From: a virus
Taxonomy: Duplodnaviria > Heunggongvirae > Uroviricota > Caudoviricetes
Virus record (IMG/VR): IMGVR_UViG_3300027808_000017
Location: 1-64,000 of that record
Length of the DNA: 64,000 nt
Direction: 5' to 3' (one strand)
Below are positions 7,148 through 62,641 of the stretch, piece by piece; within the stretch, counting starts at the first letter, position 1, and each line of letters starts with the position of its first letter. The translations under genes and the position numbers were made by a program. The notes beneath the pieces are model-generated. The model was given only the letters and a program-made list of their open reading frames with translations. It had not been told where the DNA came from and ran no database searches.

Positions 7148-7176
7148 TTGACAATAAATCGGTTTGGGTATATAAT
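7148..7176 (+). promoter_or_regulatory. sigma70-type early promoter (family member)
   Basis: TTGACA-17(ATAAATCGGTTTGGGTA)-TATAAT; UTR CTTGTATTGATTGATTAAAGGAG. Confidence 0.65.
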
Positions 7177-14608: not shown

Positions 14609-14642
14609 TACATCGTGTAATCAACTATGAATAAATACTAGG

Positions 14643-17017: not shown

Positions 17018-18048
17018 AATACATATTGCTTGCGGTGATGCTGGCCCTAACAGCATGTGCTAGCACTACTGAGGCTGTAAGAACTTCAAGCGATAGTCCC
17101 GATGCTGGGGTCATACGTGTTCTCGGCACAGGATCAACTAAAGAAGAGGCAAAGAATAACGGCTTCACTACTGCTATCGAAATTGCTGTTGGTTCTGCAA
17201 TTCTTTCACACAAAGATGTCCGTTCCGATAAACTTATACGTGATGACATAGTGAAATACAATGCAGGTTACGTTGATAATTATAAAATCATTGACGAGAC
17301 AAAAACAAGCGGTGGTTACTCATTGTTGATGGATGTTCATGTTAAGAGCAGTCGCATACATGAACGATTATTGAGTGGGGGCGGTGACGAGAAAAATGTC
17401 AACGGTGATAAATTGGCTACTCAATATGACACATATCGTGCCCAACAAGAATCAGCCGATAAACTCATTGATGTGTTAATACAAGATTGGCCCGAAAAAG
17501 CCTTTACTATCAAACAAGGTAAACAAGAATTTAGTATTAATGAAAAACGTGTGTCTGTATTACGAATTCCAATTGAAATGAATATGAACTATAGCTATAT
17601 TATGGCATTGGATGAGTCTCTTAAAAAGATTAACCAAAAGAAAACATATTCAGATTTAAAAATTGGTATTGCAGTTAAAGCACCCGATGATTGGGTATTC
17701 GGTAGAACCAATGGATATTTCTTTGATGACATTCAACGTATAAAACAATTCCAACAAGGGTTTAATGATAACTTTTGGATTCAAGTTCATTTAAAAGATA
17801 TTAATGGTAATTTACTGTATTCTCAGTGTTTTGAACATGGAAGAAGTTTTTCATACCAAACAACTAAGGCATTTATTTTACAAGGTAATAACTCCGTAGA
17901 TTCTAACATTGAAATTGAACTAAATTCAAAACTATCCAAGACATTGCGCCAAGCATATAGTGTAGAAATGGTTCCCTCTAGAGTTTGTATCAACAAAATA
18001 TACGAAACTATACCTCTGCTAAAATGTCCCCCGCTAAACAAAAAATGA
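17014..18048 (+). CDS. lipoprotein
   Basis: MKYILLAVMLALTACAS lipobox; ATGA-coupled. Confidence 0.55.
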   Translation: MKYILLAVMLALTACASTTEAVRTSSDSPDAGVIRVLGTGSTKEEAKNNGFTTAIEIAVGSAILSHKDVRSDKLIRDDIVKYNAGYVDNYKIIDETKTSGGYSLLMDVHVKSSRIHERLLSGGGDEKNVNGDKLATQYDTYRAQQESADKLIDVLIQDWPEKAFTIKQGKQEFSINEKRVSVLRIPIEMNMNYSYIMALDESLKKINQKKTYSDLKIGIAVKAPDDWVFGRTNGYFFDDIQRIKQFQQGFNDNFWIQVHLKDINGNLLYSQCFEHGRSFSYQTTKAFILQGNNSVDSNIEIELNSKLSKTLRQAYSVEMVPSRVCINKIYETIPLLKCPPLNKK

Positions 18049-18059
18049 TAAGTAATAAT

Positions 18060-19283
18060 ATGACCGAAGAATCTAAAATAAATTATTGTCACTTTTGTGG
18101 GAACAGCAAAGAAATTGTAAAAAAACTTGTTGTTAGTGAGAAGGTTGCTATATGCAATGAGTGCGTGGAACTATGTCAGAATCTAATCAATGATGAAGTA
18201 GAGCCAGAAAATCCGATTGAACCTAATCGTGATCCGGAGGCCATCAAAGAATATCTTGATATGCACGTTGTTGGTCAAGAAGATGCTAAGATAGTTTTGA
18301 GCGTTGCTGTTGCCAATCATTATAAGCGCATCAACAATCCACCAAAAGATATTGAAATACAAAAAGGTAATGTGTTGATTGTCGGGCCTACAGGAAGTGG
18401 TAAAACATTGCTTGCTAAGACAGCCGCAAAATATCTTAAAGTGCCCTTCATTGTTGCTGATGCTACGAGTTTGACAGAAGCCGGGTATGTTGGAGATGAT
18501 GTTGAATCAATGATTAGTATGTTGATTCATGCCGCAGGTGGTGATGTAAAATTAGCCGAGCGTGGTATTATATTTGTTGATGAAATTGACAAGATTGCAC
18601 GTAAAGGTGAAAGTGCAAGTATCACCCGTGACGTATCAGGTGAAGGTGTTCAACAAGCATTGCTCAAAATGGTAGAAGGTAGTACCGTTCGTATTCCCAA
18701 AGAGGGTGGTCGTAAACATCCTGGTGGCGATATGAGTGAAATCAATACCAAAGATATATTGTTTATTGCCGGTGGCGCATTTGTTGGTCTTAAAGACATT
18801 ATTGCTAATCGTATGAATGGTACAAGTATTGGATTTAATGCTACTATCACTGACAGCAAAGTTGAAGGTGATTTGACAAAAGTCAGTCCTGATGACTTAA
18901 CCAAATATGGAATGATTCCTGAGTTCATTGGACGTTTTACTACTACAGTAAGTATCCAAGAATTGTCTAAGAAACAATTGGTTCATATTTTGACAGATGT
19001 AAAGAACAATTATATCAGTCAATACAAGTATTTGCTAAGTTTGGATAATATCAATTTATCTTTTACTAAAGAAGCCCTTGAACAAATTGCTGAGAATACA
19101 CTAACATTAAAGACCGGAGCACGTGGTTTACATACTGAGATTGAACGTGTTTTAATGTGTCATATGTTCTATACCAAGCAATACAAAGAAAATAATATAA
19201 CTATGCTAAATATAGATGTGGGTCAAATTTTAAATCCCACACCAATATATGACGAAAAAAGGAAGACAGGTACTAGTAACTGA
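18060..19283 (+). CDS. clpX: ATP-dependent Clp protease ATP-binding subunit ClpX
   Basis: N-terminal C4 zinc finger CHFCG...CNEC; Walker A GPTGSGKTLLAKT; ClpX-like length; start set at MTEESKINYCHFCG (track ORF starts further upstream). Confidence 0.85.
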   Translation: MTEESKINYCHFCGNSKEIVKKLVVSEKVAICNECVELCQNLINDEVEPENPIEPNRDPEAIKEYLDMHVVGQEDAKIVLSVAVANHYKRINNPPKDIEIQKGNVLIVGPTGSGKTLLAKTAAKYLKVPFIVADATSLTEAGYVGDDVESMISMLIHAAGGDVKLAERGIIFVDEIDKIARKGESASITRDVSGEGVQQALLKMVEGSTVRIPKEGGRKHPGGDMSEINTKDILFIAGGAFVGLKDIIANRMNGTSIGFNATITDSKVEGDLTKVSPDDLTKYGMIPEFIGRFTTTVSIQELSKKQLVHILTDVKNNYISQYKYLLSLDNINLSFTKEALEQIAENTLTLKTGARGLHTEIERVLMCHMFYTKQYKENNITMLNIDVGQILNPTPIYDEKRKTGTSN

Positions 19284-19470
19284 TGGTAATGTTGAAAAAG
19301 CATTACGTAAGTTTAAGAAAAAAATTGCAGAGCAAGGTCTACTGCAAGAAGTCCGCGACCGTCAAGAGTTCGTTAAACCCACAGTCAAACGCAAAATTGC
19401 CAAGAGCAAAGCAAAGAGTAGATGGAAGAAACATCTACGAGACCAAGAATTACCCAAAAAACTATATTAA
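19249..19470 (+). CDS. rpsU: 30S ribosomal protein S21
   Basis: VLVTDGNVEKALRKFKKKIAEQGLLQEVRDRQEFVKPTVKRK aligns with bacterial S21 ([43 protein letters not shown]); overlaps clpX 3' end. Confidence 0.75.
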   Translation: MTKKGRQVLVTDGNVEKALRKFKKKIAEQGLLQEVRDRQEFVKPTVKRKIAKSKAKSRWKKHLRDQELPKKLY

Positions 19471-21554: not shown

Positions 21555-22001
21555 ATGACAAGAGAATTAACATTAAGAGCGTTAGACATACCAACCATTC
21601 ATAGATTTGGAATAGGATTTGATTCTATGATAGATGAACTGATGCGTATGAATGCAACGCAAACTAACACCAACTACCCACCCTATAATATAGTAAAAGA
21701 ATCTGAGGATCGATTTGCTATTGAAGTAGCGGTTGCTGGGTTTAGTGAAGGTGAGGTTTCTATTGAAATAGAGAATCGTGTACTTACAATTGCCGGTAAC
21801 AAAATACATGACTTAGATAATCCTAAAGAATATCTACATCATGGGATAAGTAACCGTAATTTTATTCGTGAATTTTCTTTAGCAGAACATGTTGAAGTTA
21901 AAAGTGCTATAAATGAAAACGGGATCTTATCTATTGGACTAGAACGAATTATTCCAGAAGAGCATAAGCCCAAGAAGATTGTAATAAATTACAATAAATA
22001 A
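21555..22001 (+). CDS. small heat-shock protein (Hsp20/IbpA family)
   Basis: alpha-crystallin-like core (AVAGFSEGEVSIEIENRVLTIAG), 148 aa. Confidence 0.75.
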   Translation: MTRELTLRALDIPTIHRFGIGFDSMIDELMRMNATQTNTNYPPYNIVKESEDRFAIEVAVAGFSEGEVSIEIENRVLTIAGNKIHDLDNPKEYLHHGISNRNFIREFSLAEHVEVKSAINENGILSIGLERIIPEEHKPKKIVINYNK

Positions 22002-28044: not shown

Positions 28045-28073
28045 TTGACAATAAATGGCTTTGGGTATATAAT
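28045..28073 (+). promoter_or_regulatory. sigma70-type early promoter (family member)
   Basis: TTGACA-17(ATAAATGGCTTTGGGTA)-TATAAT; UTR AGAATCTTAAACAGTAAAGAAAAGGA. Confidence 0.65.
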
Positions 28074-32578: not shown

Positions 32579-32856
32579 ATGAAGATACACGTGAAGTCTT
32601 GTTAATTCTGCAAGAAGAATGTGCAGAGGTAACTCAAGCGGTCAGTAAGTGTTTTCGTTTTGGTCCCGATCAAATGAAACCTGGTAAGGATCGCACTAAT
32701 ATTAATATGCTTGAAGAAGAAATTGGCGATCTGTTTGCTATGGTTGAGTTACTTACTGACTTAAATGTTGGTGTAACAGTTGAGGGCATTCAACAAGCCA
32801 AGATGAAGAAGTTTGAAAAATTGAAGATTTGGTCTGACTTAAAAATTAATAAATAA
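32575..32856 (+). CDS. MazG-like nucleoside triphosphate pyrophosphohydrolase
   Basis: LQEECAEV...EEEIGDLFAMV: EExxE/D metal-binding pattern of MazG/dimeric dUTPase family. Confidence 0.55.
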   Translation: MNEDTREVLLILQEECAEVTQAVSKCFRFGPDQMKPGKDRTNINMLEEEIGDLFAMVELLTDLNVGVTVEGIQQAKMKKFEKLKIWSDLKINK

Positions 32857-41159: not shown

Positions 41160-41711
41160 TTAGATAGGTAACCAAAGCCAAAGTGCTTGGCTCATTAGTA
41201 TCATTGCTACACCACCTACATATAAACTTGCTGTATATAGACGATTGTTAACTGATAAGATACTTGCTGATAAAAGAACAATAGCAATTTGAAATAAGCT
41301 ACCTGCAAATGTATACCATGGACTACGTAGTTTAGCCACTGCACGTTCATCTTCTAATTTACGTGCTTTAGCCATTAACTCTTTTTTACCTTCACCAGAT
41401 TCTGGATCAGATTCGTAACGGTCAATTTTAGCCTGTAGTCGTGCAACTTTTTCCTTGTCACCTCTAGCTAAGGCATCATCACGTGCCATTTCTGCTAATG
41501 TACCCTTGATACTTTTAGCTTGATAGAAGCTCCAAGTATTGTTAGCATCAATAGTATTGTTCAATACTTTACCACTATTACTACCACCTATATAGGTATT
41601 GATAGCAAGTAGTGCCGCAAATACGACAATAACCCATCCTGCTTTATCCTTGATTAATGCCTCACGCTCTGAACGAGATAGAGGTTTTGCTTCTTGTTTT
41701 ACTTCTGCCAT
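41160..41711 (-). CDS. membrane protein
   Basis: 183 aa; TM near N-term and C-term; RBS AAGGGAG. Confidence 0.5.
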   Translation of the reverse strand: MAEVKQEAKPLSRSEREALIKDKAGWVIVVFAALLAINTYIGGSNSGKVLNNTIDANNTWSFYQAKSIKGTLAEMARDDALARGDKEKVARLQAKIDRYESDPESGEGKKELMAKARKLEDERAVAKLRSPWYTFAGSLFQIAIVLLSASILSVNNRLYTASLYVGGVAMILMSQALWLWLPI

Positions 41712-41772
41712 TTTAGTCTCCCTTATGTTATAATTATTATATTAGTATTTATTGTTTTTTTGCCCAAAATCT

Positions 41773-41802
41773 TTGACAATCATGTGCAAAGTATGATACT
41801 AT
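41773..41802 (+). promoter_or_regulatory. sigma70-type promoter with extended -10
   Basis: TTGACA, ~18-nt spacer, TGaTACTAT; ATG 41809 only ~7 nt downstream. Confidence 0.4.
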
Positions 41803-41808
41803 TATATT

Positions 41809-42336
41809 ATGAAATTAAACATGCCACATTTATACCTAGACATGGACGGTGTCCAAGCAGACTTATTCACCGAAGTAGCACATAGATGCGGAGTCAAACA
41901 TTGGGATGATATACCAGATCATGATGAAGTTTTTAACAAACTAAGTTTACAAGGCCCAGAGGTTGCCTATGAATTATTTCGTGTATTGAAACCATTATCC
42001 GGTGGACAAGTTATTGTCAACTGGCTACATGATAGCAAAATACCGTTCACTGTATTAAGTGCCCCATTACGCAATGAAGGTGATGCAAGTGTTAGGGCAA
42101 AACGTGATTGGCTAGATGAGTTTAATCCCGGAACCAGTCAAAATGCTATCTTTACTAAACGCAAATTCAAATATGCAATATCAGATGGACAACCTAATGT
42201 ACTAGTAGATGACTTTAACTATTATCTAAACAGTTGGGCAGAAGCCGGTGGTATTGCAGTCAAGCATAGTGATGCAACTACTGAACATACCATAATGCAG
42301 TTGAACAAAATCTATAAGCCTTATCTAAATAACTAA
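41809..42336 (+). CDS. 5'(3')-deoxyribonucleotidase-like HAD phosphatase
   Basis: HAD motif I LYLDMDGVQADLF near N-terminus (cf. DMDGVLAD of dNT-type nucleotidases). Confidence 0.55.
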   Translation: MKLNMPHLYLDMDGVQADLFTEVAHRCGVKHWDDIPDHDEVFNKLSLQGPEVAYELFRVLKPLSGGQVIVNWLHDSKIPFTVLSAPLRNEGDASVRAKRDWLDEFNPGTSQNAIFTKRKFKYAISDGQPNVLVDDFNYYLNSWAEAGGIAVKHSDATTEHTIMQLNKIYKPYLNN

Positions 42337-42343
42337 ATATTAG

Positions 42344-42532
42344 ATGAGCAAAAAACTGCCTGAAGGAAAGATCCAAAGTTACGAGGTCATATCTCACAAA
42401 GATGAGAATGGTGACATGTTGATGCCTATACCAAAATCTTTATTGAAAGAATTAGGTTGGAAACCCGGTGACAACATTGAATTTGGACTTGATACTAAAG
42501 GTCAGTTTATTTTAACGAGAAAAGAAGAATGA
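42344..42532 (+). CDS. SpoVT/AbrB (MazE-like) swapped-hairpin domain protein
   Basis: MLMPIPKSLLKELGWKPGDNIEFGLDTKGQFILTRKEE; homologous to N-terminus of 58775-59257(-). Confidence 0.45.
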   Translation: MSKKLPEGKIQSYEVISHKDENGDMLMPIPKSLLKELGWKPGDNIEFGLDTKGQFILTRKEE

Positions 42533-42954
42533 GTTACGTTTACACTAGTCCCGGGATGACCCCAACCGCAGTACCAACAATAACCGTTTCTACCGTTTCA
42601 CCCAACACAGTTACTTATCCTAATCAAATAAATTGGGGTACCATGTCTACCGGTGGTAATGGTAGTACTGGTACTTACACCATTGCAACTGATCCCAATC
42701 TTAAAGGTGCATCATTACAAATTAAAGGTAATGCAGAGTTTGAAGGTGATGTTACTTTTGAGGGTGACGTTGCTATTAAAGGTAAGTCAATCAAAGAGTC
42801 ACTATTAGCTATTGAGGAACGGTTAGCCATACTACACCCAAATATAGAACTAGAGAAGAAATGGAACAACTTGCGAGAACTACGTAAACAATACATGGAA
42901 CTTGAAGCCGAAATTATAGAAAAAGAGAAGATGTGGGCTATACTGAAAAAGTAG
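42529..42954 (+). CDS. hypothetical protein with Thr-rich / fibre-like N-half and coiled-coil C-half
   Basis: GNAEFEGDVTFEGDVAIKG repeats then heptad-rich tail. Confidence 0.45.
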   Translation: MSYVYTSPGMTPTAVPTITVSTVSPNTVTYPNQINWGTMSTGGNGSTGTYTIATDPNLKGASLQIKGNAEFEGDVTFEGDVAIKGKSIKESLLAIEERLAILHPNIELEKKWNNLRELRKQYMELEAEIIEKEKMWAILKK

Positions 42955-42957
42955 TAC

Positions 42958-42986
42958 TTGACAGTAATTGGGCTTTAGTCTATAAT
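42958..42986 (+). promoter_or_regulatory. sigma70-type promoter
   Basis: TTGACA-17-TATAAT. Confidence 0.55.
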
Positions 42987-43018
42987 ATGTACATGTTCAA
43001 CACTATGACTCACACATT

Positions 43019-43408
43019 ATGACTATGCATCTTGAGGGCCCATGGCTCAGTCTTGGCGGCAAACGTAAAGGCAAGGTTAAGTTCCGCAATGCTGAACAAG
43101 CAAAGAAAGCAAGAGAATTGGAAGAATCTTGGAAAGAAATGCTGAAACGCCAAGGCGTTGAAGCCGAAGAAAAGAAACGTGCTAAGGCACTTAAGGCTCC
43201 TACACTTACATATAAATTGTCTGCACCTCCAGGACGTGAGACACAAAAAATCAAAAGTCTAAGCACACCCGGTGGTTCTACTGCCGCTGTTCACAAAGTG
43301 TACACTGGTGACAAAATCATTGGTATCGCTACTATGCACAAATCAAATGCTGTGCCTGTGTTTAGCAATGAACAAGCGGTAGAAATTTCAAGGATGCGCC
43401 GTGGCTAG
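43019..43408 (+). CDS. hypothetical basic protein (G+C-richer)
   Basis: 129 aa. Confidence 0.45.
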   Translation: MTMHLEGPWLSLGGKRKGKVKFRNAEQAKKARELEESWKEMLKRQGVEAEEKKRAKALKAPTLTYKLSAPPGRETQKIKSLSTPGGSTAAVHKVYTGDKIIGIATMHKSNAVPVFSNEQAVEISRMRRG

Positions 43409-43664
43409 ATGCACCTACTACGGCGTCAAAGGCGACTATGCGTGGAAATTGGCATTGGACAATAAATTGCGCTCGACCAATATCAACCACATTCCCCGAC
43501 TCATGCGTGAAAGCGATCAAGTGTGGTATCAAGGTCCTCGTGGCGGTGTGCAGTTGGCCAAGGGTGCATACTGGAACTACTGGGCCACCTATCTGCGCCA
43601 GGATTCAGAAAAAATGAAAGAATTCATATGGATCAAGTTAAAAGCAAAGGAGTTGCGATTTTAA
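43401..43664 (+). CDS. hypothetical protein
   Basis: 87 aa. Confidence 0.45.
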   Translation: MARCTYYGVKGDYAWKLALDNKLRSTNINHIPRLMRESDQVWYQGPRGGVQLAKGAYWNYWATYLRQDSEKMKEFIWIKLKAKELRF

Positions 43665-43880
43665 ATGGCAAAAGAAGAGGGTATTAAAATGGACGGCAAG
43701 GTAGTAGATGTACTACCTAATGCCGTTTTTAAAGTAGTAATGGAAGCTGGTCCTATCATAACAGGATACATCAGCGGCCGCATGCGTAAGCATGATATTA
43801 AAATTTTATTGGGTGATACTGTTGAAGTTGAATTCAGCCCATATGATTTGACTAAAGGTCGTATAACCCGTAGACGGTAA
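43665..43880 (+). CDS. infA: translation initiation factor IF-1
   Basis: 71 aa S1-like OB fold: [63 protein letters not shown] aligns end-to-end with bacterial IF-1. Confidence 0.85.
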
Positions 43881-43923
43881 GTTGTAACAGTATTGTCACA
43901 TATATCCCAATAAATATGGGTAT

Positions 43924-44808
43924 ATGCAAAAAACTTACCGCAGTATTTTCATTAGCGATGTACACTTAGGTACAAAAGATTGTCAAGCAGGAAAATTAAA
44001 CAATTTCCTCAAGCACAATTCGTGCGATACCCTATATCTTGTGGGTGATATAATTGATGCATGGAAAATACAACAAAACAAATGGCGTTGGAAACAATCA
44101 CACACCAACGTAGTACGCAGAGTATTAGGTCATGCCAAGCGTGGCACTAAAGTAATATTCATTGCAGGCAATCACGATGAATTCTTAAGACCAATGATAC
44201 CCTATGGTTTCAGTTTTGGCTTAATAGAAATACACAATCAAATAGAGCATATAGGTGCAGACGGTAAACATTATCTTGTCACTCACGGAGACATGTTTGA
44301 TGGCCTTACAAGACTAGCACCCTGGTTATCATTCTTAGGAGACAAAGCATATGATTTCATTCTTAGCCTCAATAGCAAACTTGCTTGGATTCGTCGCCGT
44401 ATGGGTTTTGGGTACTTTAGCCTTAGCCGTTTTCTTAAGCACAGGGTCAAAAAAGCAGTAGATTTTATTTTTAAGTTTGAAGAAAACTTAGCTAAGTATT
44501 GCAAGAAGCGTGGATTTGATGGAGTGATATGCGGTCACATACATCACGCAGAAATAAAAGATATAGATGGTGTAACTTATATGAATGACGGTGATTGGGT
44601 AGAGAGTTGTACTGCGCTAGTAGAACATCATGATGGTCGTTGGGAAATAATAACTTGGACACAGGAGAGTGACAATGTGGATAATGATATTGATAGCAGT
44701 ACACGTGAACAACCCACAGGATCAACCAGGAAGAATAGAACTGACATTCAACGACCAAAAGAGTTGCGAACAAGCGTTGTTGACAATGAAGTACGAATTA
44801 AAATTTAA
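43924..44808 (+). CDS. LpxH-family metallophosphoesterase
   Basis: ISDVHLG, GDIIDAW, AGNHDEF, THGD, CGHIHH, DGDW - same motif order as LpxH; acidic C-terminal extension. Confidence 0.55.
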   Translation: MQKTYRSIFISDVHLGTKDCQAGKLNNFLKHNSCDTLYLVGDIIDAWKIQQNKWRWKQSHTNVVRRVLGHAKRGTKVIFIAGNHDEFLRPMIPYGFSFGLIEIHNQIEHIGADGKHYLVTHGDMFDGLTRLAPWLSFLGDKAYDFILSLNSKLAWIRRRMGFGYFSLSRFLKHRVKKAVDFIFKFEENLAKYCKKRGFDGVICGHIHHAEIKDIDGVTYMNDGDWVESCTALVEHHDGRWEIITWTQESDNVDNDIDSSTREQPTGSTRKNRTDIQRPKELRTSVVDNEVRIKI

Positions 44809-44829
44809 GAGTTTTAAGGTAGAAGGAAA

Positions 44830-45549
44830 ATGTCAGAAACAATACTAAGTGAAAAAATTACAATCGTTGTGCCATGTAAGAATGAAGAAAATTACATCGC
44901 ACATCTACTGATGCATCTACGCAATCAACTGATAGGTAGTACCAAAATCATTATTGCAGATTGTTCTACTGACAATACCCGTGAAGTTATTCAAGCAACA
45001 AAGGGTAGATTAAATGTAGAAATCATTGACGGTGGACCTGTTAGCATTGCAAAGAATCGTGGTGCTAAATTAGTAACTACTCCCTACATTCTATTCATTG
45101 ACGCTGATGTTCGTTTCTTTAAAGAGACAGTTATCCGTGATTCAGTCAATGAGATGGAGTCAAAGAACTTAGATTTAATCGGACTAAACATCAAATGCTA
45201 TGACCATGACAAACGTACTAGTATTGGATTTGCTGTTTTCAACGGAATCAACCGTATATTAAAACACTTTAGTCCATTTGCTGTGGGTGCTTTCATGCTA
45301 ACACGCAGAGATAGATTTGAAGAATTCGGGGGATTCCCTGAAAAGATGTCAACATCCGAAGACTATTTCCTATCCAGAAAGTACAGCCCCAAAAAGTTTA
45401 GAATTATTAAACATCATTTTGGTCAAGATAGTCGCAGATTTAAGAAGATGGGTTATTTTGGAATGGCTACATATCTTGTTAAGAACTTTGTTAACCGAAA
45501 CAATAAGAAATACTGGGATAGTTTAGACTCATCTAAGTATTGGAGCTAA
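44830..45549 (+). CDS. family 2 glycosyltransferase
   Basis: ITIVVPCKNEENYI N-terminus, DAD (DxD) motif, 239 aa. Confidence 0.65.
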   Translation: MSETILSEKITIVVPCKNEENYIAHLLMHLRNQLIGSTKIIIADCSTDNTREVIQATKGRLNVEIIDGGPVSIAKNRGAKLVTTPYILFIDADVRFFKETVIRDSVNEMESKNLDLIGLNIKCYDHDKRTSIGFAVFNGINRILKHFSPFAVGAFMLTRRDRFEEFGGFPEKMSTSEDYFLSRKYSPKKFRIIKHHFGQDSRRFKKMGYFGMATYLVKNFVNRNNKKYWDSLDSSKYWS

Positions 45550-45574
45550 TGTAAGTTGCGATAAATACTCTACT

Positions 45575-46126
45575 ATGTACGATATTGTAGAGAAAATCAG
45601 TGAATCCAGAACAAAAAAATTAGAGATAGTCAAGCTATCCTATGACCTTTCCGACCTCAATCCAGTATTAAGCAAAAAGACAATGGATTATCACTATGGG
45701 GATTTAGCCCATGGATATGCATCCCGATACAACAAGGGTGAGGGTGACAAAGATTTCAATTATGCGGGTGCTTTCCTGCACAACATTTATTTTCCGCAGT
45801 TTCGCAAAATACAAGAAGATAACACTCCTAACGGTCCTGTACTAGGAATCATTAAGCGTAAGTACGATTGGTGGAGAGATTTTAAAGAACAATTCAAACA
45901 AGAAGCCATGAAGATACAGGGTAGTGGTTGGATTTATATGAGTTATACAGGTGAGATAAAGACTATTGTTAACCACGAGGTTCGTGAAGATATTCTTATT
46001 CTAGTTGACTGGTGGGAACATGCTTGGGCCTTAGACTATCAAGCAGATAAAAAAGGTTACTTAGAAAACATTTGGAAGATAATGAACTGGAGTCACATCA
46101 ATACCCGCTGGGGGAAGAATTTATGA
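45575..46126 (+). CDS. Fe/Mn superoxide dismutase homolog
   Basis: SKKTMDYHYGDLAHGY ~ QTMEIHHTKHHQTY; GSGWIYM ~ GSGWAWL; DWWEHAWALDYQ...IWKIMNW ~ DVWEHAYYLKFQ...FWNVVNW. Confidence 0.6.
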   Translation: MYDIVEKISESRTKKLEIVKLSYDLSDLNPVLSKKTMDYHYGDLAHGYASRYNKGEGDKDFNYAGAFLHNIYFPQFRKIQEDNTPNGPVLGIIKRKYDWWRDFKEQFKQEAMKIQGSGWIYMSYTGEIKTIVNHEVREDILILVDWWEHAWALDYQADKKGYLENIWKIMNWSHINTRWGKNL

Positions 46127-48663
46127 GAGCCACTGAATTTATAACTGAATCTAAAACTGTAGAGTACGAAGGCTTAACACTAAAAATAAGTAAACAAGGT
46201 CATGAGTTAATAGTCAATGCCCTTGATGATTGGGGTAATAAAGTATTAGGCCATGTAAGATTCAACATAGGTGATGGTAAAGAATTAGACCCACAAGACC
46301 TTAAAGTTGATGATAAGTATCAAGGTCAAGGCATCGCTAAAGTCATGTATGATTATGTTAAAAGTCTTGGCTATACGATTGCTAGAAGTTATGACCAAAC
46401 TGATGCCGGTGCAGGCTTTTGGAACAAGCATCGCGGAGAAGATGTTCGTATTTGGGAAGCCCGAGCCGGTGGAAAACTGAATAGAAAATACGATTCGGCC
46501 CGTCGAGAAGTTAAAAGCATTTTGAACAGCCCATACATAAACTTAAAAGAGTGGGGTCTGAGCATGACTATGTTGCCCAAACTAGGTATTAATCCTGGCA
46601 AGGGCATCAGCGAGGATACTCCCAAGGGCATTTACTTTTATCCATTAGCGTATGTCAATGATTGGGTCAATGGTTCTGAGGAGTTACCATGGGGTAATGA
46701 TTTCCCATACATACAAGTGTTTCAATACGATACTAGTCATCGAATGACACCGGACACAAAAGTTGATCCTGAGAGATTAAAGGCAACACTGCGTCAATAT
46801 TGTCCTGAAGAAGTTATCAATCAATTAATAGAAGAAGGCACATACAACAATGATCCTTATTGGTTTATTTATAATTGCCTAATTCAAGTAAGCAAGAATG
46901 ATGAATCTACTATTATTCGTTGGAATAAAATATTAAGAGACTTGGGCTTTACTAGTGTTTATGACTATGGCAAGGGCTGGATAGCACACAACGAACCAGA
47001 GCAAGGTATTATCTTAGATCCAAGAATCATCAAGCAGGTTCAAACTTTTAACAACTACACACGTAAGCAAGGTGTAGCGGAGGGCAAGGTCAAACTCTAC
47101 ACAGATCCTGGCTATTTTGGGGCAGAAGTAGATGACACAGGGTTTGATGGCCTACCAGTAGTCAACATACCCACTAATCAACTTGTGGGATTTGAACCAG
47201 ATTCAAAGATGAATCAACCAAAAAGCCGAGCCAATGTTGAAAAAATAGTAGCAGGATTGAAACAAGGTGACAAGTTGCCACCATTGTTGGTTCGCAAATA
47301 TAAAAATGGATATCAAGTATTAGATGGTCATCATAGATTCTGGGCCTATAAATTGTCGGGTACAAAATCTATTCCATCACGAATTGTACCTGATAAAGAT
47401 ATAGAAGAAATCAGTAAACAAGGTGTGGTAGAAAGTGTCAATGACTATCTATGGCACGGGTCTAGGTATAGAAATGAGGTACTAGTACCGCGTCAGGCTA
47501 ATGATACCGGTGGTAAAGAAGAAAGTAATAAAAATGCTATATATGCTACTCCTAGTGCAAAAGTTGCTATAGCAATGGGGCTAACTACTCCTGGATCAGA
47601 TACCGGAATGTTTCCAAACGATCCACAAATGGTACTATTCAAAGGCGGTATTAGAAAAGGTGAAATGGTTTACTTGCACAAGGTACCTAAAGATTTATTC
47701 ATAAAACACAACAGCAGAGAATGGTATAGTAAACCCGATGTAAAAGAAATTACACCTATAGAAGTAGTAACAGTTCCTGTAGACAAATGGTTAAGTTTGA
47801 TTAGAACTGCTACCCCTAAAGATTTAGAATTACAGAAAAAAAACATGAAGAAGCAAGGTGTGGCGGAAGGCTTAGATGATAATAGAGTTAGTTTCAAGGT
47901 ACAAAAAGGTAAAAACAAATTTGCAACTACTTTAAGTGTTGGTGGCGACCCAGTAGGAGTATACCAATATGATGCTGATACAGGTCGTAGCATAGCCGAG
48001 ATTTATCCAGAATTCAAAGGCAAAGGATTAGGTAAATTATTGGTTTTACATGCTATCTATACCGCGGCTAATTTGGGATTAGATTTCCAAGAAGATGAAT
48101 CAAGAACCTCAGAGTATGATAATGTATTAGATAGTTTGAGTAGTAACGGTTATATTGTAGATGACGATGGATATTGGTATGTAACCGGTCAAGGTGAACA
48201 ATATCTACAACAATCATTAAAACAAGGTGTGGCGGAAGGTGATGACAAATTAAAAGATCCAATAGCAAATGCAATATTAGATTTCTATCAACATGCCGGA
48301 CATATTAGCAAAGACCCAATTGATAACTATGTTGGTACTGCAAAAGAATTGCTAAGTCAGGTCAGTGATCCTACAGTCAAATCAAAGATACTAGATATTT
48401 TCAAACAAGCAAAACAAAGCCCATATGTTCAAGGTGGAGTTGTTACAACTATTGGTGCATTACTTGCCGGTGGAGTATTAAGTTCAGCACAGAAAATGGG
48501 ATTGAGTCCAGCGCAAACTAACTTAGTGTTACAAGCGATACTAAATACAGTTATACCTACTGTGGTGTCCAGGATCAATGGAAAGAGTTGGAGTGACACA
48601 GTTAAGTACACACTAGCAAGTGCAGGCATTGGTACTGGCATTGCTGGTATGATGGAGGAATAA
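46123..48663 (+). CDS. large multidomain protein: GNAT-like / ParB-like nuclease domain / second GNAT-like, with KQGVAEG linker repeats and hydrophobic C-terminus
   Basis: GNAT motif A-like YQGQGIAKVMYDYV and KGKGLGKLLVLHAIY; ParB/Srx motif GYQVLDGHHRFWAYKL; start at MRATEFITES (GGGGGAAG RBS). Confidence 0.5.
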   Translation: MRATEFITESKTVEYEGLTLKISKQGHELIVNALDDWGNKVLGHVRFNIGDGKELDPQDLKVDDKYQGQGIAKVMYDYVKSLGYTIARSYDQTDAGAGFWNKHRGEDVRIWEARAGGKLNRKYDSARREVKSILNSPYINLKEWGLSMTMLPKLGINPGKGISEDTPKGIYFYPLAYVNDWVNGSEELPWGNDFPYIQVFQYDTSHRMTPDTKVDPERLKATLRQYCPEEVINQLIEEGTYNNDPYWFIYNCLIQVSKNDESTIIRWNKILRDLGFTSVYDYGKGWIAHNEPEQGIILDPRIIKQVQTFNNYTRKQGVAEGKVKLYTDPGYFGAEVDDTGFDGLPVVNIPTNQLVGFEPDSKMNQPKSRANVEKIVAGLKQGDKLPPLLVRKYKNGYQVLDGHHRFWAYKLSGTKSIPSRIVPDKDIEEISKQGVVESVNDYLWHGSRYRNEVLVPRQANDTGGKEESNKNAIYATPSAKVAIAMGLTTPGSDTGMFPNDPQMVLFKGGIRKGEMVYLHKVPKDLFIKHNSREWYSKPDVKEITPIEVVTVPVDKWLSLIRTATPKDLELQKKNMKKQGVAEGLDDNRVSFKVQKGKNKFATTLSVGGDPVGVYQYDADTGRSIAEIYPEFKGKGLGKLLVLHAIYTAANLGLDFQEDESRTSEYDNVLDSLSSNGYIVDDDGYWYVTGQGEQYLQQSLKQGVAEGDDKLKDPIANAILDFYQHAGHISKDPIDNYVGTAKELLSQVSDPTVKSKILDIFKQAKQSPYVQGGVVTTIGALLAGGVLSSAQKMGLSPAQTNLVLQAILNTVIPTVVSRINGKSWSDTVKYTLASAGIGTGIAGMMEE
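47065..48240 (+). repeat. three copies of a ~20-nt intragenic direct repeat encoding KQGVAEG
   Basis: AAGCAAGGTGTAGCGGAGGGC at 47065-47085, AAGCAAGGTGTGGCGGAAGG at 47851-47870, AACAAGGTGTGGCGGAAGGT at 48221-48240. Confidence 0.7.
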
Positions 48664-48986
48664 TGGCATATTCAGAAAAAGTAATTGACCAAATAGTAAA
48701 AGAACACAATGTTGTGTTGTTTATGAAGGGGACCGCACAATTTCCCATGTGTGGATTTTCGGGCAAAGCTATACAACTGCTGAATGAATGCGATTCAGAC
48801 TTTGATGTATTCACTGTAAATGTGCTTGATGATAATGACATTCGACAAAGTATCAAAGAATACAGTAATTGGCCGACCATTCCTCAATTGTATGTCAATG
48901 GTGAGTTCATCGGCGGATCTGACATCTTGATCGAAATGCACGAATCAGGTGAATTACAACAATTATTAAAAAACAAGGAGTCATAA
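48663..48986 (+). CDS. monothiol glutaredoxin (Grx4/GrxD type)
   Basis: FMKGTAQFPMCGFSGKA: CGFS active site; 107 aa. Confidence 0.8.
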   Translation: MAYSEKVIDQIVKEHNVVLFMKGTAQFPMCGFSGKAIQLLNECDSDFDVFTVNVLDDNDIRQSIKEYSNWPTIPQLYVNGEFIGGSDILIEMHESGELQQLLKNKES

Positions 48987-48989
48987 TTT

Positions 48990-49018
48990 ATGGCATATTC
49001 AGAAAAAGTAATTGACCA
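48990..49018 (+). repeat. 29-bp exact direct repeat of the first 29 nt of the grx CDS (copy at 48663-48691)
   Basis: ATGGCATATTCAGAAAAAGTAATTGACCA present at both positions; second copy opens a 16-codon remnant ORF. Confidence 0.85.
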
Positions 49019-49078
49019 CTACGCAGTTATGATAGAATAATAATGCACACAACCGGGTGCACCTAGATAAATACTTGT

Positions 49079-49675
49079 ATGAAAAACAAATATGGTCTAA
49101 GTAAGGTGTGCTTTTTTTGTGAATCTAGTTTTATAACTAAACCTAGATTTATAGATTACTGTTCACAAAAATGTAAAAATCCTCTTAACAGGGGAGAATA
49201 TGATCCCTGGAATAAAGGTATCAAACTTACAGATGAACAAAAAGCAAAACAAAATACAGACGGGCTCAAAAAAGGATGGGGATGGAACAAGGGCGGAACT
49301 AATGAAGCGGCACGCCAGCGTATGCTAGTCAATAATCCAAATAAAGATGGAAGGTTAAACAATCTTAGACCAAAAAATCCAATTACAGAACCCCTTAAAA
49401 TATATCGTAGTAAGGTTAGGTACCATACATATAGAACTCTTAAAGAAATGAGAGCAAACGGTGAGTGGGTTCCAAAAACTGGTAAGTATAAAGACAGTTG
49501 GCAAATTGACCATATTATTCCACACAAACAAGGTTTTGAATTAAGAATAGATCCTTCAGTACTTGGTGGAAAAAAGAATATACAATTTATTAAAGGCGAA
49601 GAAAACAGAAAAAAATGGGATAGTTATCAACCCATTGAAATAGTAGAGTCTATTACAGGAGGTAATTATGTATAG
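49079..49675 (+). CDS. putative HNH endonuclease
   Basis: N-terminal Cys cluster CFFC...C..C; WQIDHIIPHKQG...N...N consistent with HNH core. Confidence 0.45.
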   Translation: MKNKYGLSKVCFFCESSFITKPRFIDYCSQKCKNPLNRGEYDPWNKGIKLTDEQKAKQNTDGLKKGWGWNKGGTNEAARQRMLVNNPNKDGRLNNLRPKNPITEPLKIYRSKVRYHTYRTLKEMRANGEWVPKTGKYKDSWQIDHIIPHKQGFELRIDPSVLGGKKNIQFIKGEENRKKWDSYQPIEIVESITGGNYV

Positions 49676-50051
49676 TGCAAAAGTGTTAGATCATTATGAG
49701 AACCCTAGGAACGCAGGAAGTTTTTCCAAAGATGAAGAAAATATAGGTACGGGATTAGTAGGAGCCCCGGCGTGTGGTGACCTAATGAAACTACAAATAA
49801 GAGTAGAGAATGGCATTATTACAGATGCACGTTTTAAAACGTATGGATGTGGATCGGCAATTGCAAGTAGTTCTCTAGTCACAGAGTGGGTTAAAGGCAA
49901 GACATTAGACGAGGCAGCAACTATTAAAAATTCAGAAATTGCTGAGGAACTTGCATTACCCCCAGTTAAGATACATTGTAGTATCTTAGCAGAAGATGCT
50001 ATCAAAGCCGCAGTAGAAGATTATAAAAAGAAACATGATATCATTATCTGA
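49668..50051 (+). CDS. iscU: Fe-S cluster assembly scaffold IscU
   Basis: YENPRNAGSF, GAPACGD, YGCGSAIASS, LPPVKIHCS (three conserved Cys + LPPVK). Confidence 0.85.
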   Translation: MYSAKVLDHYENPRNAGSFSKDEENIGTGLVGAPACGDLMKLQIRVENGIITDARFKTYGCGSAIASSSLVTEWVKGKTLDEAATIKNSEIAEELALPPVKIHCSILAEDAIKAAVEDYKKKHDIII

Positions 50052-50358
50052 CAAAGCAAAAACAAAAATAGAAACTCTATTAAAGAGTTCTCAACATGTT
50101 GGGATTCGTATAGGGGTGAAAACAACTGGTTGTAGTGGATTAGCATATGTATTAGAATATGTAAAAGAATATGTTAGTGATCCTACTACTATCAATTACG
50201 CTCAACCTAACTTTTGTGTATTAGTAGATAAAAAGCATAATGTATATTTAGAAGGTCTTACGATGGATTATGTCCGTAATGGACTAAATGAGGGGTTTGA
50301 GTTTAGCAACCCGAATGAACGTGACCGCTGTGGATGCGGAGAAAGTTTTAGAGTATGA
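50035..50358 (+). CDS. A-type Fe-S carrier (IscA/HesB family)
   Basis: GCSGLAY ... CGCGESF C-terminal signature. Confidence 0.7.
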
Positions 50359-50678
50359 TAACAATTACAGAATCAGCAAGTATCAAAATAGCAGATATTA
50401 TTGCGGAAGAAAACAACCCTGACTTAAAGTTACGTATGTTTGTCCAGGGCGGGGGATGCTCAGGATTCAGCTATGGATTTACGTTAGAGGAGATAAAAAA
50501 TGAAGATGACTTTGAATTTGAAGCTGGTGCCACAAGTGTCCTGGTCGATGCAATGTCGGCTCAATATCTTCAAGGGGCTGAGGTTGATTACGTAGAAGAC
50601 TTAATGGGGGCAGAATTCAAGATAAAGAACCCCACAGCTACTAGTACTTGCGGATGCGGGAGTTCCTTTTCGGTTTAA
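50355..50678 (+). CDS. A-type Fe-S carrier (IscA/ErpA family)
   Basis: [21 protein letters not shown] ... CGCGSSFSV. Confidence 0.8.
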
Positions 50679-50702
50679 GATAAATACTAGACAAGGATTA
50701 TC

Positions 50703-52751
50703 ATGGCAATTTTAGGACAAGCAAACATATTAGTAGGAGTAGAAAATCAAGCTACTGGTAGTGATAGCATCTACACCGCATTCAATAAAGTAGTTGACAA
50801 CTTTGACACGTTATTCACCTATTCCAGCCCGTTCAATACATTTAATAGTGGTAACGGGATCACAGCAACCCCATTTAGTAGCAACGGATCAGTATTCTTT
50901 GAAAACACAGGAGTAACTAGTTTAATTGCCGGTACTGGAATCACTATATCATCTCAAACAGGAGAAATTGTTATTTCTTCTGCCGGTGGGGAGGGAATGT
51001 CAGGTGTCACTAGTGTTGGAATATCAAGTATTTCGTTAGATGTAAGTGATTCTCCTATCGTCAGTTCAGGATTAATTAGAGTAGAATTACCTACAATTGA
51101 AACAGGCCTTGGATTTGAACCGGGTGACTATATTACACCCGCACTTACCGTAGATGCATACGGTCGTATTACTAGTATTTCTAATACCTCTACGTCAGGT
51201 ACAGTAACCAGCATAGCACTAGATACAGTTGGTGATGGCATTGGCATAACCGGAGGTCCGATAACAGATAATGGAACGATTGTTATTACTAACACAGGCG
51301 TTACCAGAATAAATGCAGGAAATGGAATTGAATTAAGTGGTAGTACCGGAAACGTGACTATCAATTCTACACTTAGAGGTGTTGGTGTTGTTAGTAGAGT
51401 AGATGTTGATAGTACTACACTGACAGTACTGAACAGTCCAATAACATCATCAGGAACAATTACAGTTGATATTCCAGATGACATCTCGTTAGCTGGAAAT
51501 CTTATTGCAAATACTATCACTAGCAACTCCACAGCAACAATTACAGGTAATATTACTGTGGGTAATATTACCTCTACTGGTACAATTACTTCATTAGGTG
51601 GAAATATTTTATTAGGAGCTAATCTAGTAATTACTACCTTAAGTGGCACGGGCGGACCATCTAATATTCTTACTATTGGGTTTACTACTCAACCAAGAAT
51701 ACCGTTTGTACCAGGTGCTATCATTACCATTACCGGAACAACACCAACTACTTACAATGGATCTTACACAGTAATCACAGGTACTACAAGTGCAGTAACT
51801 GTGACTAGTTCAGTATCAACAGCAGTAGTTACAAAAGGTAGAATCATTGGTGGAGGTGATATAATTAGTAATGGATTTGTTACGGTATCTGCTAACATTA
51901 CTAGTGCAAACGTGATAGCTACTACAGCATTGCAGGCACCCAAAGTTAATATTACAGGTAATGTATCATCCTCTGCATGGGGTACAAGTGGAATAGGTTT
52001 AGTTGTGTCAGCAAATACATATACTGATGCCTCTACTGCAGGTTCAGGCACAGTCGCAAGTGCTTCAATCAACGTGATAAATATACCAACTATTACAGCA
52101 AGTAATCTTGCAGTAACCGTCACTAAAGCATCGTCATTATATATTGCAGGTGCACCTGCTGCCGGTGCTAATATTACATTAACCAATTCATATGCATTGC
52201 AAGTGGCTGCTGGGCCTGTACAGATTGATACATCTACTGCCGCAACATCAGCCACGACCGGCGCACTAAGAGTTGCCGGTGGTGTAGGTATCAGTGGTGC
52301 TTTATATGCAGGAGGCGGAATAGCTAGTGCAAACACTACATCCGGTTCTCTAGTGGTTACCGGTGGACTAGGTGTTAGTGGTGATACATATCACGGTGGT
52401 AGTGTCCTTATTTCAGGAACAGGCGGGCTAGGGTACGGAACTGGATCTGGTGGAACAGTTACGCAAGCTACAAGCCGAACAACCGGTGTAACTATTAATA
52501 AAACAAACGGTGCTATTGTTCTTATTTCCGGAGCAGGTTCTACCGGGTGGCAATCATTCACTGTGACTAATAGTACAGTGGTAGCTACTGATGTAGTTCA
52601 TGTTTCTCAAAAATCAGGTACGGATCTTTATCAAATATTTGTTACTGCTATAGCAGCCGGTAGCTTTCGAATAACATATGCAACTACTGCAGGCTCAACT
52701 ACTGAGCAACCGGTATTTAATTTCGCTGTCGTAAAAGCAGTAACAGCATAA
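50703..52751 (+). CDS. tail-fibre-like structural protein (Thr/Gly/Ser/Ile-rich repeats)
   Basis: 682 aa; repeated NTGVT(S/R)(L/I)xAGxGIxxSxxTGxVxI units. Confidence 0.5.
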   Translation: MAILGQANILVGVENQATGSDSIYTAFNKVVDNFDTLFTYSSPFNTFNSGNGITATPFSSNGSVFFENTGVTSLIAGTGITISSQTGEIVISSAGGEGMSGVTSVGISSISLDVSDSPIVSSGLIRVELPTIETGLGFEPGDYITPALTVDAYGRITSISNTSTSGTVTSIALDTVGDGIGITGGPITDNGTIVITNTGVTRINAGNGIELSGSTGNVTINSTLRGVGVVSRVDVDSTTLTVLNSPITSSGTITVDIPDDISLAGNLIANTITSNSTATITGNITVGNITSTGTITSLGGNILLGANLVITTLSGTGGPSNILTIGFTTQPRIPFVPGAIITITGTTPTTYNGSYTVITGTTSAVTVTSSVSTAVVTKGRIIGGGDIISNGFVTVSANITSANVIATTALQAPKVNITGNVSSSAWGTSGIGLVVSANTYTDASTAGSGTVASASINVINIPTITASNLAVTVTKASSLYIAGAPAAGANITLTNSYALQVAAGPVQIDTSTAATSATTGALRVAGGVGISGALYAGGGIASANTTSGSLVVTGGLGVSGDTYHGGSVLISGTGGLGYGTGSGGTVTQATSRTTGVTINKTNGAIVLISGAGSTGWQSFTVTNSTVVATDVVHVSQKSGTDLYQIFVTAIAAGSFRITYATTAGSTTEQPVFNFAVVKAVTA

Positions 52752-58234: not shown

Positions 58235-58263
58235 AGTATAGCAGAACCCTTATTTATTGTCAA
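58235..58263 (-). promoter_or_regulatory. sigma70-type promoter (minus strand)
   Basis: revcomp TTGACAATAAATAAGGGTTCTGC TATACT. Confidence 0.5.
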
Positions 58264-62103: not shown

Positions 62104-62303
62104 TCTTCAACTCCGAAAACTCTGAAATGTTTTCCAATAATTACACAGCCTCTAAATTCACCATTATCCGCTAGAATCTTGATACATTCCATCACAATCA
62201 ACTCGGCAAACTTTTGACATTCTGGCATGTCCCAGTGTCCAATGCCAAACATATCCGTTGTGTATCCAGCCTGTTCAGCAAGTTCTCGAATTCGTTCGTT
62301 CAT
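62100..62303 (-). CDS. small protein, MNxRIKEL paralog family (copy 4)
   Basis: MNERIRELAEQAGYTTD...FAELIVMECIKIL. Confidence 0.5.
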   Translation of the reverse strand: MNERIRELAEQAGYTTDMFGIGHWDMPECQKFAELIVMECIKILADNGEFRGCVIIGKHFRVFGVEE

Positions 62304-62641
62304 TACTTTACTCCAAATGTGTTCAATGCTGGTTGCAGTGTGTTAATCAATTCAGTCTCGCGGGCATGAGCAGGACGCTTGCCTCTCACAATCTCCACGA
62401 CACCAAATACAAATCGCTCGGCACCTTGTTCACGCAAGGCACGTGACAAACCCCAATCTTTGTTCTCAGTCATAGCACGTTGCATGTGTTTTTGCATACG
62501 ACGGCGTAATGTGCGAAATACATTACCCTTGAATGAAACAGCAGTCAGACCAATGTAATACTCAAGTGTTACAGTGTCTTGAATGTAGTAGATGACTTGA
62601 TTGCGGTCTGTTCTACGTTTGCGGTTGATTTTCGAGTTCAT
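62303..62641 (-). CDS. putative GIY-YIG nuclease
   Basis: VIYYIQDTVTLEYYIGLT...RTLRRRMQKH...ARETELINTLQPALN fits GIY-x10-YIG...R...H...E...N spacing. Confidence 0.45.
   Translation of the reverse strand: MNSKINRKRRTDRNQVIYYIQDTVTLEYYIGLTAVSFKGNVFRTLRRRMQKHMQRAMTENKDWGLSRALREQGAERFVFGVVEIVRGKRPAHARETELINTLQPALNTFGVK

Follow-up and report, generated by a model that had tools for sequence, protein, structure and literature searches.

Initiation factor 1 (IF1, or IF-1) is found among the translation genes of huge phages, and a hypothesis of translation reprogramming has already been published for these phages (Al-Shayeb et al. 2020, PMC7162821). A 'Translation initiation factor 1A' is listed among the 39 core genes of Jug phages (2026; PMC12880540). 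The ribosomal protein bS21 is a small translation-initiation component of aquatic and large phages, which has been proposed to replace the host protein and thereby favor phage mRNAs (PMC9723584). In published Bacteroidetes phages, the bS21 gene lies among structural genes and is expressed late (PMC9723584). Here we describe an IF-1 gene (infA homolog) at 43665..43880 on the + strand of a 64-kb window with a G+C content of 0.37. The window is the whole stretch of DNA that was analyzed, positions 1 to 64,000 of the IMG/VR record IMGVR_UViG_3300027808_000017. The gene follows a sigma-70-type promoter and two small open reading frames, ORF1 and ORF2. Phage-borne IF-1 is already known, and the window gene is a well-documented further example. 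The reading that we favor, and regard as probable, is that the gene encodes a functional phage IF-1 that would be transcribed early by the host, bind the host 30S subunit and sustain initiation capacity. Giant-phage genomes are widely reported to carry initiation-factor genes, and we know of no such phage factor that has been experimentally tested.

By sequence, the 71-aa product is a genuine full-length IF-1 with a single S1-like oligonucleotide/oligosaccharide-binding (OB) domain. It scores 101.3 bits against the equivalog model TIGR00008 (cut-off 61.15) and 73.2 bits against PF01176 (cut-off 30.2), where the match spans profile positions 1-64 of 64. Residues 1-70 align without a gap to residues 1-70 of the structures 2n78 and 9fco, and residues 2-70 align to 1ah9. 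Identity to the E. coli and P. aeruginosa IF1 structures is 56-58%. An earlier note on this DNA had claimed an end-to-end alignment with bacterial IF-1 and proposed a hidden Markov model (HMM) search for IF-1 as a check. The collinearity with solved IF1 structures and the two profile scores, both above their cut-offs, bear the claim out. The G+C content of the gene is 0.39. The median ratio of nonsynonymous to synonymous substitution rates (dN/dS, by NG86) against its relatives is 0.075, with synonymous sites near saturation. Purifying selection on the gene is strong, and the gene is functional and old in its lineage.

The positions at which IF1 contacts the 30S subunit are K2/3, P18, R23, Y/H35, G38, K39, R41, R46, Y60, D61, R/K64, R66 and R70 (PMC10913371; PMC4611024; bioRxiv 10.1101/2023.10.27.564398). 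We compared residues between 167 viral sequences of the clade and the 77 nearest cellular IF-1 proteins. The contacts to h44/A1492-A1493, to the 530 loop and to uS12, together with the C-terminal Arg, are kept or conservatively replaced in the clade. P18 is conserved in 97% of the 167 viral sequences, and G38, R41, Y60, D61, R66 and R70 are conserved in 99%. R23K, K39R and R46K are the conservative replacements, and K64 is the E. coli residue. At positions 20 and 35 the clade departs from E. coli and has Ala20 and Tyr35, which T. thermophilus IF1 has naturally. The clade-specific residues are Val16, Ala20, Gly34, Tyr35, Asp44, Lys46, Leu49, Ser58 and Arg69. According to the title of a paper cited in PMC4611024 (Kapralou 2008), IF1 of other species replaces E. 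coli IF1.

The viral proteins were compared with cellular IF-1, which was sampled from GTDB at one genome per species, among at most 600 candidate stretches. The closest sampled cellular proteins are 57-67% identical to the window protein and come mostly from metagenome-assembled genomes of Gammaproteobacteria. Across the whole clade, viral and sampled cellular IF-1 are at most 69% identical, and the viral proteins have a median identity of 80% to one another. Other phage IF-1 proteins differ in their relation to the clade. Those of Lak, Bacteroides DAC and LR756511 are 44-50% identical to the window's, below cellular IF-1, and keep an aromatic residue 44. Their low identity and aromatic residue indicate that they are separate captures. 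The annotated IF-1 of Sinorhizobium phage Phosso has Val16, Gly34 and Leu49 in common with the clade and Asn at position 44. We found no literature on this IF-1 clade or on its Asp44 signature.

The promoter at 42958..42986 (+) consists of a -35 hexamer TTGACA at 42958-42963, a 17-nt spacer and a -10 hexamer TATAAT at 42981-42986. It matches the sigma-70 consensus at 12/12 hexamer positions, with a spacer of consensus length (17 +/- 1), and the predicted transcription start lies at ~42993. With at most one mismatch, TTGACA-N17-TATAAT occurs at 22 sites in the window, compared with 1.46 +/- 1.25 expected from dinucleotide-preserving shuffles of the window, so the promoter at 42958 is no chance match. 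Further members of this family lie, for example, at 7148-7176 (+), 28045-28073 (+) and 57264-57236 (-). In most of the 22 copies, the spacer follows a common extended sequence, ATAAAT...TTTGGGTA, and the leader is of one of two conserved types with a Shine-Dalgarno (SD) sequence. The 22 sites look like repeated early promoter-plus-leader cassettes that would be read by host RNA polymerase. The copy at 42958 differs from the other 21 in its spacer and in its leader, which lacks an SD. About 60 relatives have a promoter at the same position 5' of ORF1, with two or fewer hexamer mismatches (mostly none) and a different spacer sequence. The TTGACA-17-TATAAT promoter of the earlier note is thus read directly, is overrepresented and is kept in relatives.

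Among 233 IF-1 relatives in IMG/VR, gene order was compared in 80 whose IF-1 is 66-96% identical to the window's. The backbone in these 80 relatives is a 5'-nucleotidase-like gene, an AbrB/MazE-like gene, a 141-aa ORF, the promoter, ORF1, IF-1 and a gene resembling Fe/Mn-superoxide dismutase (SOD). Most of them have 0-28 nt between the end of ORF1 and the ATG of IF-1. In some, ORF1 finishes with ATG AGG AGA TAA, codons that serve as the SD, and IF-1 starts 0-1 nt past the stop, sometimes with TTG. The shared promoter position and the adjacency of ORF1 and IF-1 define a conserved core of promoter, ORF1 and IF-1. Other relatives have inserts of 0.8-1.8 kb at the ORF1/IF-1 junction, which is an insertion hot spot.

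In the mechanism that we favor, the IF-1 gene would have been captured once, long ago, from a proteobacterium-like donor, and would then have evolved vertically in a large phage clade. From the early-type promoter, host RNA polymerase would transcribe ORF1, ORF2 where present and IF-1, and would probably read on into the genes downstream. The phage IF-1 would bind the A site of the host 30S subunit like cellular IF-1. It could keep or raise initiation capacity in a long jumbo-phage infection, for example when host infA expression has stopped or at low temperature. ORF1 and ORF2 would then be neighbors on the same transcript and not dedicated partners of IF-1. The ratio of initiation factors to ribosomes is of physiological importance: in E. 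coli it increases roughly threefold in the cold, with a bias of translation as the result (PMC6511846).

Several points weigh against this mechanism. Early expression is predicted only from the type of the promoter. Tyr or Phe occupies position 44 in 99% of sampled cellular IF-1, whereas the clade has Asp there in 90% of its members, with Glu or Asn in the outliers. At position 46, a contact to A1493, the clade has Lys instead of Arg. Asp44 and Lys46 together mean that the ribosomal function could be altered and not merely duplicated. Residue 44 may face the same way as residue 46, given the i/i+2 alternation of a beta strand, and a residue-level statement on the role of IF1 Tyr44 was not found in the literature. 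The SD of IF-1, AAGGAG at 43647-43652, is 12 nt upstream of the ATG, whereas other early genes have 5-9 nt. The relatives have this SD 13-17 nt from the ATG (ORF1/IF-1 junctions of L014-L076). AT-rich palindromes between the distant SD and the IF-1 ATG of relatives could form a hairpin that brings the two closer; we rejected this idea because the palindromes are inconsistent across lineages. The capture history also leans on a neighbor-joining tree of 71 residues with no bootstrap, in which all viral sequences group together and no cellular sequence falls among them. In this weak tree, Phosso IF-1 is the sister of the clade.

The changed residues and the leader of ORF1 allow a joint alternative, which we consider unlikely. 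A specialized IF-1 would alter the selection of start sites or mRNAs, for example toward leaderless or SD-less phage messages. At the same time, the operon would stand under a leader with an upstream ORF (uORF) that is sensitive to initiation factors. The residues involved would be Asp/Glu/Asn44, Lys46, Val16, Gly34 and Leu49, on the face that grips A1492/A1493. By analogy, the leader could provide feedback like the IF3 control of infC. The leader itself has unusual and conserved features. The segment 42987..43022 (+) has no SD, whereas other early genes in the window have AAAGGAG 5-9 nt before the ATG. The mini-uORF in it has three ATGs in frame, at 42987, 42993 and 43005; the one at 43005 lies in a conserved AACTATG. 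The TGA stop at 43020-43022 overlaps the ORF1 ATG (ATGA). A uORF that starts with ATG, spans 4-11 codons and ends at the overlapping TGA is present in 47 out of 51 distinct leaders of relatives. Shuffled leaders gave 3.95 +/- 1.9 such uORFs, with a maximum of 10, and the kinship of the sequences inflates the observed count. In 40 leaders the upstream ATG stands 14 nt from the ATG of ORF1, and in others the spacing is 11, 17 or 23 nt. Every one of these values is 3n+2, so the uORF frame is kept through indels. The uORF peptides vary, with ~35 versions. An SD-like motif is present in only 1/51 leaders (L085), one of the four without a uORF. The leader RNA has no structure (z +0.94), and the idea that it resembles a riboswitch or thermometer was rejected for this reason. 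ATG 42993 is 6 nt past the -10 hexamer in the window and in its closest relatives, a spacing that is also seen in the two clear leaderless genes of the window. Translation of ORF1 would most likely occur by termination-reinitiation, after a 5'-proximal or leaderless start on the mini-ORF. A connection between the uORF arrangement and IF-1 is speculation, and Asp44, Lys46, Val16, Gly34 and Leu49 may or may not bias initiation toward phage mRNAs. No mention of an arrangement of promoter, uORF, ORF1 and IF-1 was found in the literature.

It is also improbable that ORF1, ORF2 and IF-1 form a dedicated three-protein module that acts on the 30S subunit and, together with S21, reprograms initiation toward phage mRNAs. 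The attraction of this idea is that ORF1 and IF-1 are adjacent behind one conserved promoter in most of the 80 relatives. The two unknown proteins are also of a suitable kind. ORF1 (43019..43408, +) has an ATG start and encodes a 129-aa protein with an isoelectric point of 10.25 and a net charge of +14. Its AlphaFold2 (AF2) model is an extended arrangement of helix, coil, beta-hairpin and helix, with a mean predicted local distance difference test (pLDDT) of 78.5 and a predicted template modeling score (pTM) of 0.32. A very basic protein that is predicted to be extended would resemble many ribosome- or RNA-binding proteins. ORF2 (43401..43664, +) encodes a basic protein of 87 aa from a GTG start that overlaps the end of ORF1 by 8 nt, with AAGGA at 43390-43394, 6 nt upstream of that start. 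The start and stop of ORF2 are thus coupled to its neighbors, and the S21 gene is in the same genome.

The distribution of the two families speaks against such a module. The ORF1 family comprises 8000 or more phage proteins, and Pfam recognizes no domain in any of them. Homologs without IF-1 nearby are found in Delftia phage PhiW-14, Acidovorax phage ACP17 and Synechococcus phage BUCT-ZZ01, and on three metagenomic contigs of 378, 338 and 106 kb. Conversely, 8 of the 80 relatives have IF-1 without ORF1. ORF1 is therefore not specific to IF-1. ORF2 is present in about 20 of the 80 relatives, always with a GTG start 8 nt inside the end of ORF1, and is absent in about three quarters of them. Two members of the ORF2 family from the global search lie directly after ORF1 homologs, and in one of these two cases (L176) three further genes stand between ORF2 and IF-1. 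Since ORF2 is always behind ORF1 and not behind IF-1, it is tied to ORF1. In several relatives, other genes of 1-1.8 kb separate ORF1 from IF-1. Neither unknown protein is linked by fold or sequence to ribosomal proteins or ribosome-binding factors. The suggestion of the earlier note that the upstream unknowns could be IF-1 partners thus finds no support in these distributions.

As the earlier note had stated, ORF1 and ORF2 (43019-43664) are G+C-richer, with 0.45 for ORF1 and 0.47 for ORF2 against 0.37 for the window and 0.39 for IF-1. ORF1 has a dN/dS of ~0.18, a conserved N-terminus (MTMHL..GGKRKGK.KFRN) and a conserved C-terminus (YTG.K..GI.TMHKSNAVP.F...A..I..MRR). Scans of ORF1 against Pfam, NCBIfam and PHROG returned only phrog_27048, a family with no assigned function. 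No fold match to ORF1 was found in the PDB, and a profile search of PDB sequences gave nothing at E < 0.1. On two unrelated long contigs, distant ORF1 homologs lie between RNA ligases of the T4 Rnl1 type and the Rnl2 type (L173 1571-2707 and 5996-6312; L174 1254-2366 and 3757-4845). The ORF1 family may have an RNA-related context, unless the placement is a coincidence. ORF2 has a dN/dS of ~0.19, and an exhaustive HMMER search found 57 matching cluster representatives with conserved motifs. Its AF2 model is compact and confident (pLDDT 85.9, pTM 0.78). From its conservation and predicted fold, ORF2 is a real gene, apparently for an accessory small phage protein. Pfam, NCBIfam and PHROG scans of ORF2 gave no match, and its profile found nothing among PDB sequences at E < 0.1. 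Large ORF2 matches (P0250, P0275 and P0290) are repetitive Ig-like surface proteins and were taken as spurious. ORF2 was also considered as an RNA element and rejected, as an Rfam scan of 41500-46500 with E up to 1 gave no family. One ORF2-family member (P0297; L178 1948-2397) has an extra ~60 aa at its N-terminus and follows an ORF1 homolog, as ORF2 does. By eye, its N-terminal region has a likeness to the GIY-YIG motif, with no Pfam match.

The place of S21 and of leaderless genes in such a module was also part of the earlier note, and it survives only in part. A bS21 homolog is present at 19249-19470 (+; PF01165, 57.5 bits), and its product is 44% identical to what we take to be the E. coli S21 sequence. 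The gene is 24 kb from IF-1, in another gene block, and adjoins a ClpX/AAA-like gene (17985-19283). Hsp20 is encoded at 21555-22001. The leaderless geometry TATAAT-N6-ATG is seen in at least two genes. One is a 5'-3' exonuclease gene (motif 2118-2155, +; ORF 2153-3163), and the other is a 112-aa ORF (motif 62676-62639, -; ORF 62303-62641). A third leaderless candidate is at 58263 (-). The S21 gene and the leaderless genes therefore exist, but the distance of S21 does not fit a single module with IF-1.

A role of IF-1 mainly off the ribosome, as an RNA chaperone of the cold-shock-domain type or as a transcription antiterminator, is a further improbable alternative. The S1/OB fold of IF1 is related to that of CspA, and E. 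coli IF1 reportedly has RNA chaperone and antiterminator activities, as is said to have been found by Phadtare and coworkers in 2007. The phage protein is likewise a small basic OB-fold protein that matches an S1-like Pfam model. With residue 44 no longer aromatic and Arg46 replaced by Lys at the decoding-centre face, binding to the ribosome could be relaxed. However, the contacts to S12 (Y60, D61), those to the 530 loop (G38, K/R39, R66) and Arg70 are conserved at 99% in the clade, and a generic RNA chaperone would not need such conservation of contacts.

Even less probable is the use of the variant IF-1 as a weapon, whereby an abnormal occupancy of the host 30S A site through Asp44 and Lys46 would shut down or skew host translation. 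The clade-specific, non-conservative changes at near-invariant positions and the early-type promoter would suit such a role. However, a blocker of the A site would inhibit phage translation equally, and the conservation of all other functional positions, together with the very low dN/dS, indicates a working factor. No precedent for such a weapon was found in the literature searched. Finally, the idea that IF-1 is a passenger with no role in infection, either a recent host gene or host contamination of the assembly, draws on several 'phage' database records with IF-1 matches that look like host DNA, but it is effectively refuted by the conserved phage gene order (in the 80 IMG/VR contigs and in 24 metagenome contigs with the identical protein), by an identity of at most 67% to sampled cellular IF-1, by the dN/dS of 0.075, by a G+C content of 0.39 against 0.37 and by viral monophyly. 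The records in question are short fragments of Listeria, Staphylococcus or Enterococcus origin.

The extent of the transcription unit can be described in part. An array of co-directional genes extends from 41809 to 52751 or beyond. Within the window, ORF1 and ORF2 overlap by 8 nt, and the IF-1 ATG abuts the ORF2 stop with no gap (TAAATG). A scan found no terminator or strong promoter inside ORF1-ORF2-IF-1, and no intrinsic terminator was found on the + strand in 42958-50647. The next gene starts 43 nt past the IF-1 stop. Of the 55 relatives with SOD in the locus, 29 have the start of this gene 60 nt or less past the IF-1 stop, commonly at 14-34 nt. A stem-loop at 43875..43940 (+; dG -18.6 kcal/mol, z -2.6) encloses the ATG of a metallophosphoesterase gene at 43924, and no T-run follows it, so it is no canonical intrinsic terminator. 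The earlier note had placed IF-1 as the last gene of a three-gene operon. The co-directional arrangement, the short junctions and the lack of an inner terminator agree with an operon, but no terminator follows IF-1 to make it the last gene. The same three genes do not form a constant unit either, given the scarcity of ORF2, the eight relatives without ORF1 and the inserts in some others.

The metallophosphoesterase ATG is preceded at a distance of 7 nt by the motif AATAAATA (43909..43916, +). Further motifs of the AATAAATA/ATAAATAC type, at 14630-14637 and 32848-32855, likewise lie 5-8 nt upstream of start codons. The related ATAAATAC is found in relatives 5-8 nt upstream of the gene after IF-1 (SOD junctions of L014, L023, L033 and others). 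These motifs may represent a separate middle or late promoter element of the phage, and they resemble the late-promoter element of T4. They are not enriched window-wide, with 16 found against ~24 expected.

Host-like auxiliary genes follow IF-1 at 43924-50051 (+). They encode an LpxH-like metallophosphoesterase, a glycosyltransferase of family GT2, an Fe/Mn-SOD-like protein, a glutaredoxin and a NifU_N protein, and the same region contains an 863-aa GNAT + ParB_N fusion. The phosphoesterase and GT2 genes are shared with the closest relatives only. In a strain variant of the same phage (L010 6320-7162), whose IF-1 is 100% identical, an extra 280-aa gene lies between IF-1 and the metallophosphoesterase gene. 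Upstream, a 62-aa AbrB/MazE-like ORF (42344-42532, +; PF04014 just below the cut-off, phrog_661) is two genes before the promoter and is kept in relatives. A DUF4337 gene lies at 41160-41711 (-).

The window appears to belong to a large phage that is represented in metagenomes. A DNA search of INPHARED with the locus, in distant mode, gave as its sole match 99 nt of PhiW-14 gene 114, and a search with 24 kb around the locus, in near mode, gave no match, so the phage is absent from this collection of deposited genomes. Going by the JGI sample series, the habitat is probably freshwater lakes. PHROG matches among other window genes (DNA ligase, phrog_22485 and an ATPase) support a phage origin. 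The identical IF-1 protein was read on 24 metagenome contigs and is listed in 47 metagenome-index blocks, with the same gene order at the places shown. The best 120 protein matches of IF-1 are all metagenomic and are 77-96% identical, on contigs of up to ~361 kb. Contigs of 353-362 kb carry a 98%-identical ORF1 and an 82-85%-identical IF-1, and other IMG/VR relatives sit on contigs of 300-360 kb, while the window itself is 64 kb. These lengths fit a phage of ~350-360 kb, of the jumbo type. One IMG/VR record, IMGVR_UViG_3300027749_002876 (524,565 bp), contains two different loci with ORF1 and IF-1 (L037 and L072), whose IF-1 copies are 82% and 75% identical to the window's. The record either combines two phages in one bin or represents a genome in which the locus is present twice.

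The locus offers a clean test system for the role of a phage-borne initiation factor. It combines a small, conserved IF-1 from a deep, monophyletic viral clade with few substitutions at the decoding-centre face, a host-type promoter and an overlapping mini-ORF that takes the place of an SD. If neither an effect of residues 44 and 46 nor uORF sensing is found, the locus would be another example of known auxiliary translation genes.

A comparison with known systems places the locus among these. The promoter family resembles the early promoters of T4 in its near-perfect sigma-70 hexamers, its 17-nt spacer, the many copies per genome and the extended conservation around the hexamers. The initiation-factor gene infC, which serves as an analogy only, has an AUU start that is sensed by IF3 and is autoregulated. 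Here too, the transcription unit of an initiation factor opens with a non-canonical translation start region. In contrast to infC, the unusual start, with its uORF, ATGA overlap and lack of an SD, is that of ORF1 and not of IF-1. Phage bS21 is likewise a host-derived initiation component, and its gene is also in the window. It is a different protein at a different ribosomal site, however, and the window IF-1 lies behind an early-type sigma-70 promoter. Compared with cellular infA, the phage gene has a neighborhood unrelated to those of its cellular counterparts, and its product has a C-terminus that is one residue shorter, in addition to the clade-specific residues. It otherwise has the same build (E. 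coli 1AH9, T. thermophilus 1HR0), with a length of 71 aa and one S1-like OB domain. It is 56-67% identical to proteobacterial IF-1, and its contact positions are kept or conservatively replaced. As in the huge phages, this phage-borne IF-1 is found beside other translation genes, here that of S21.

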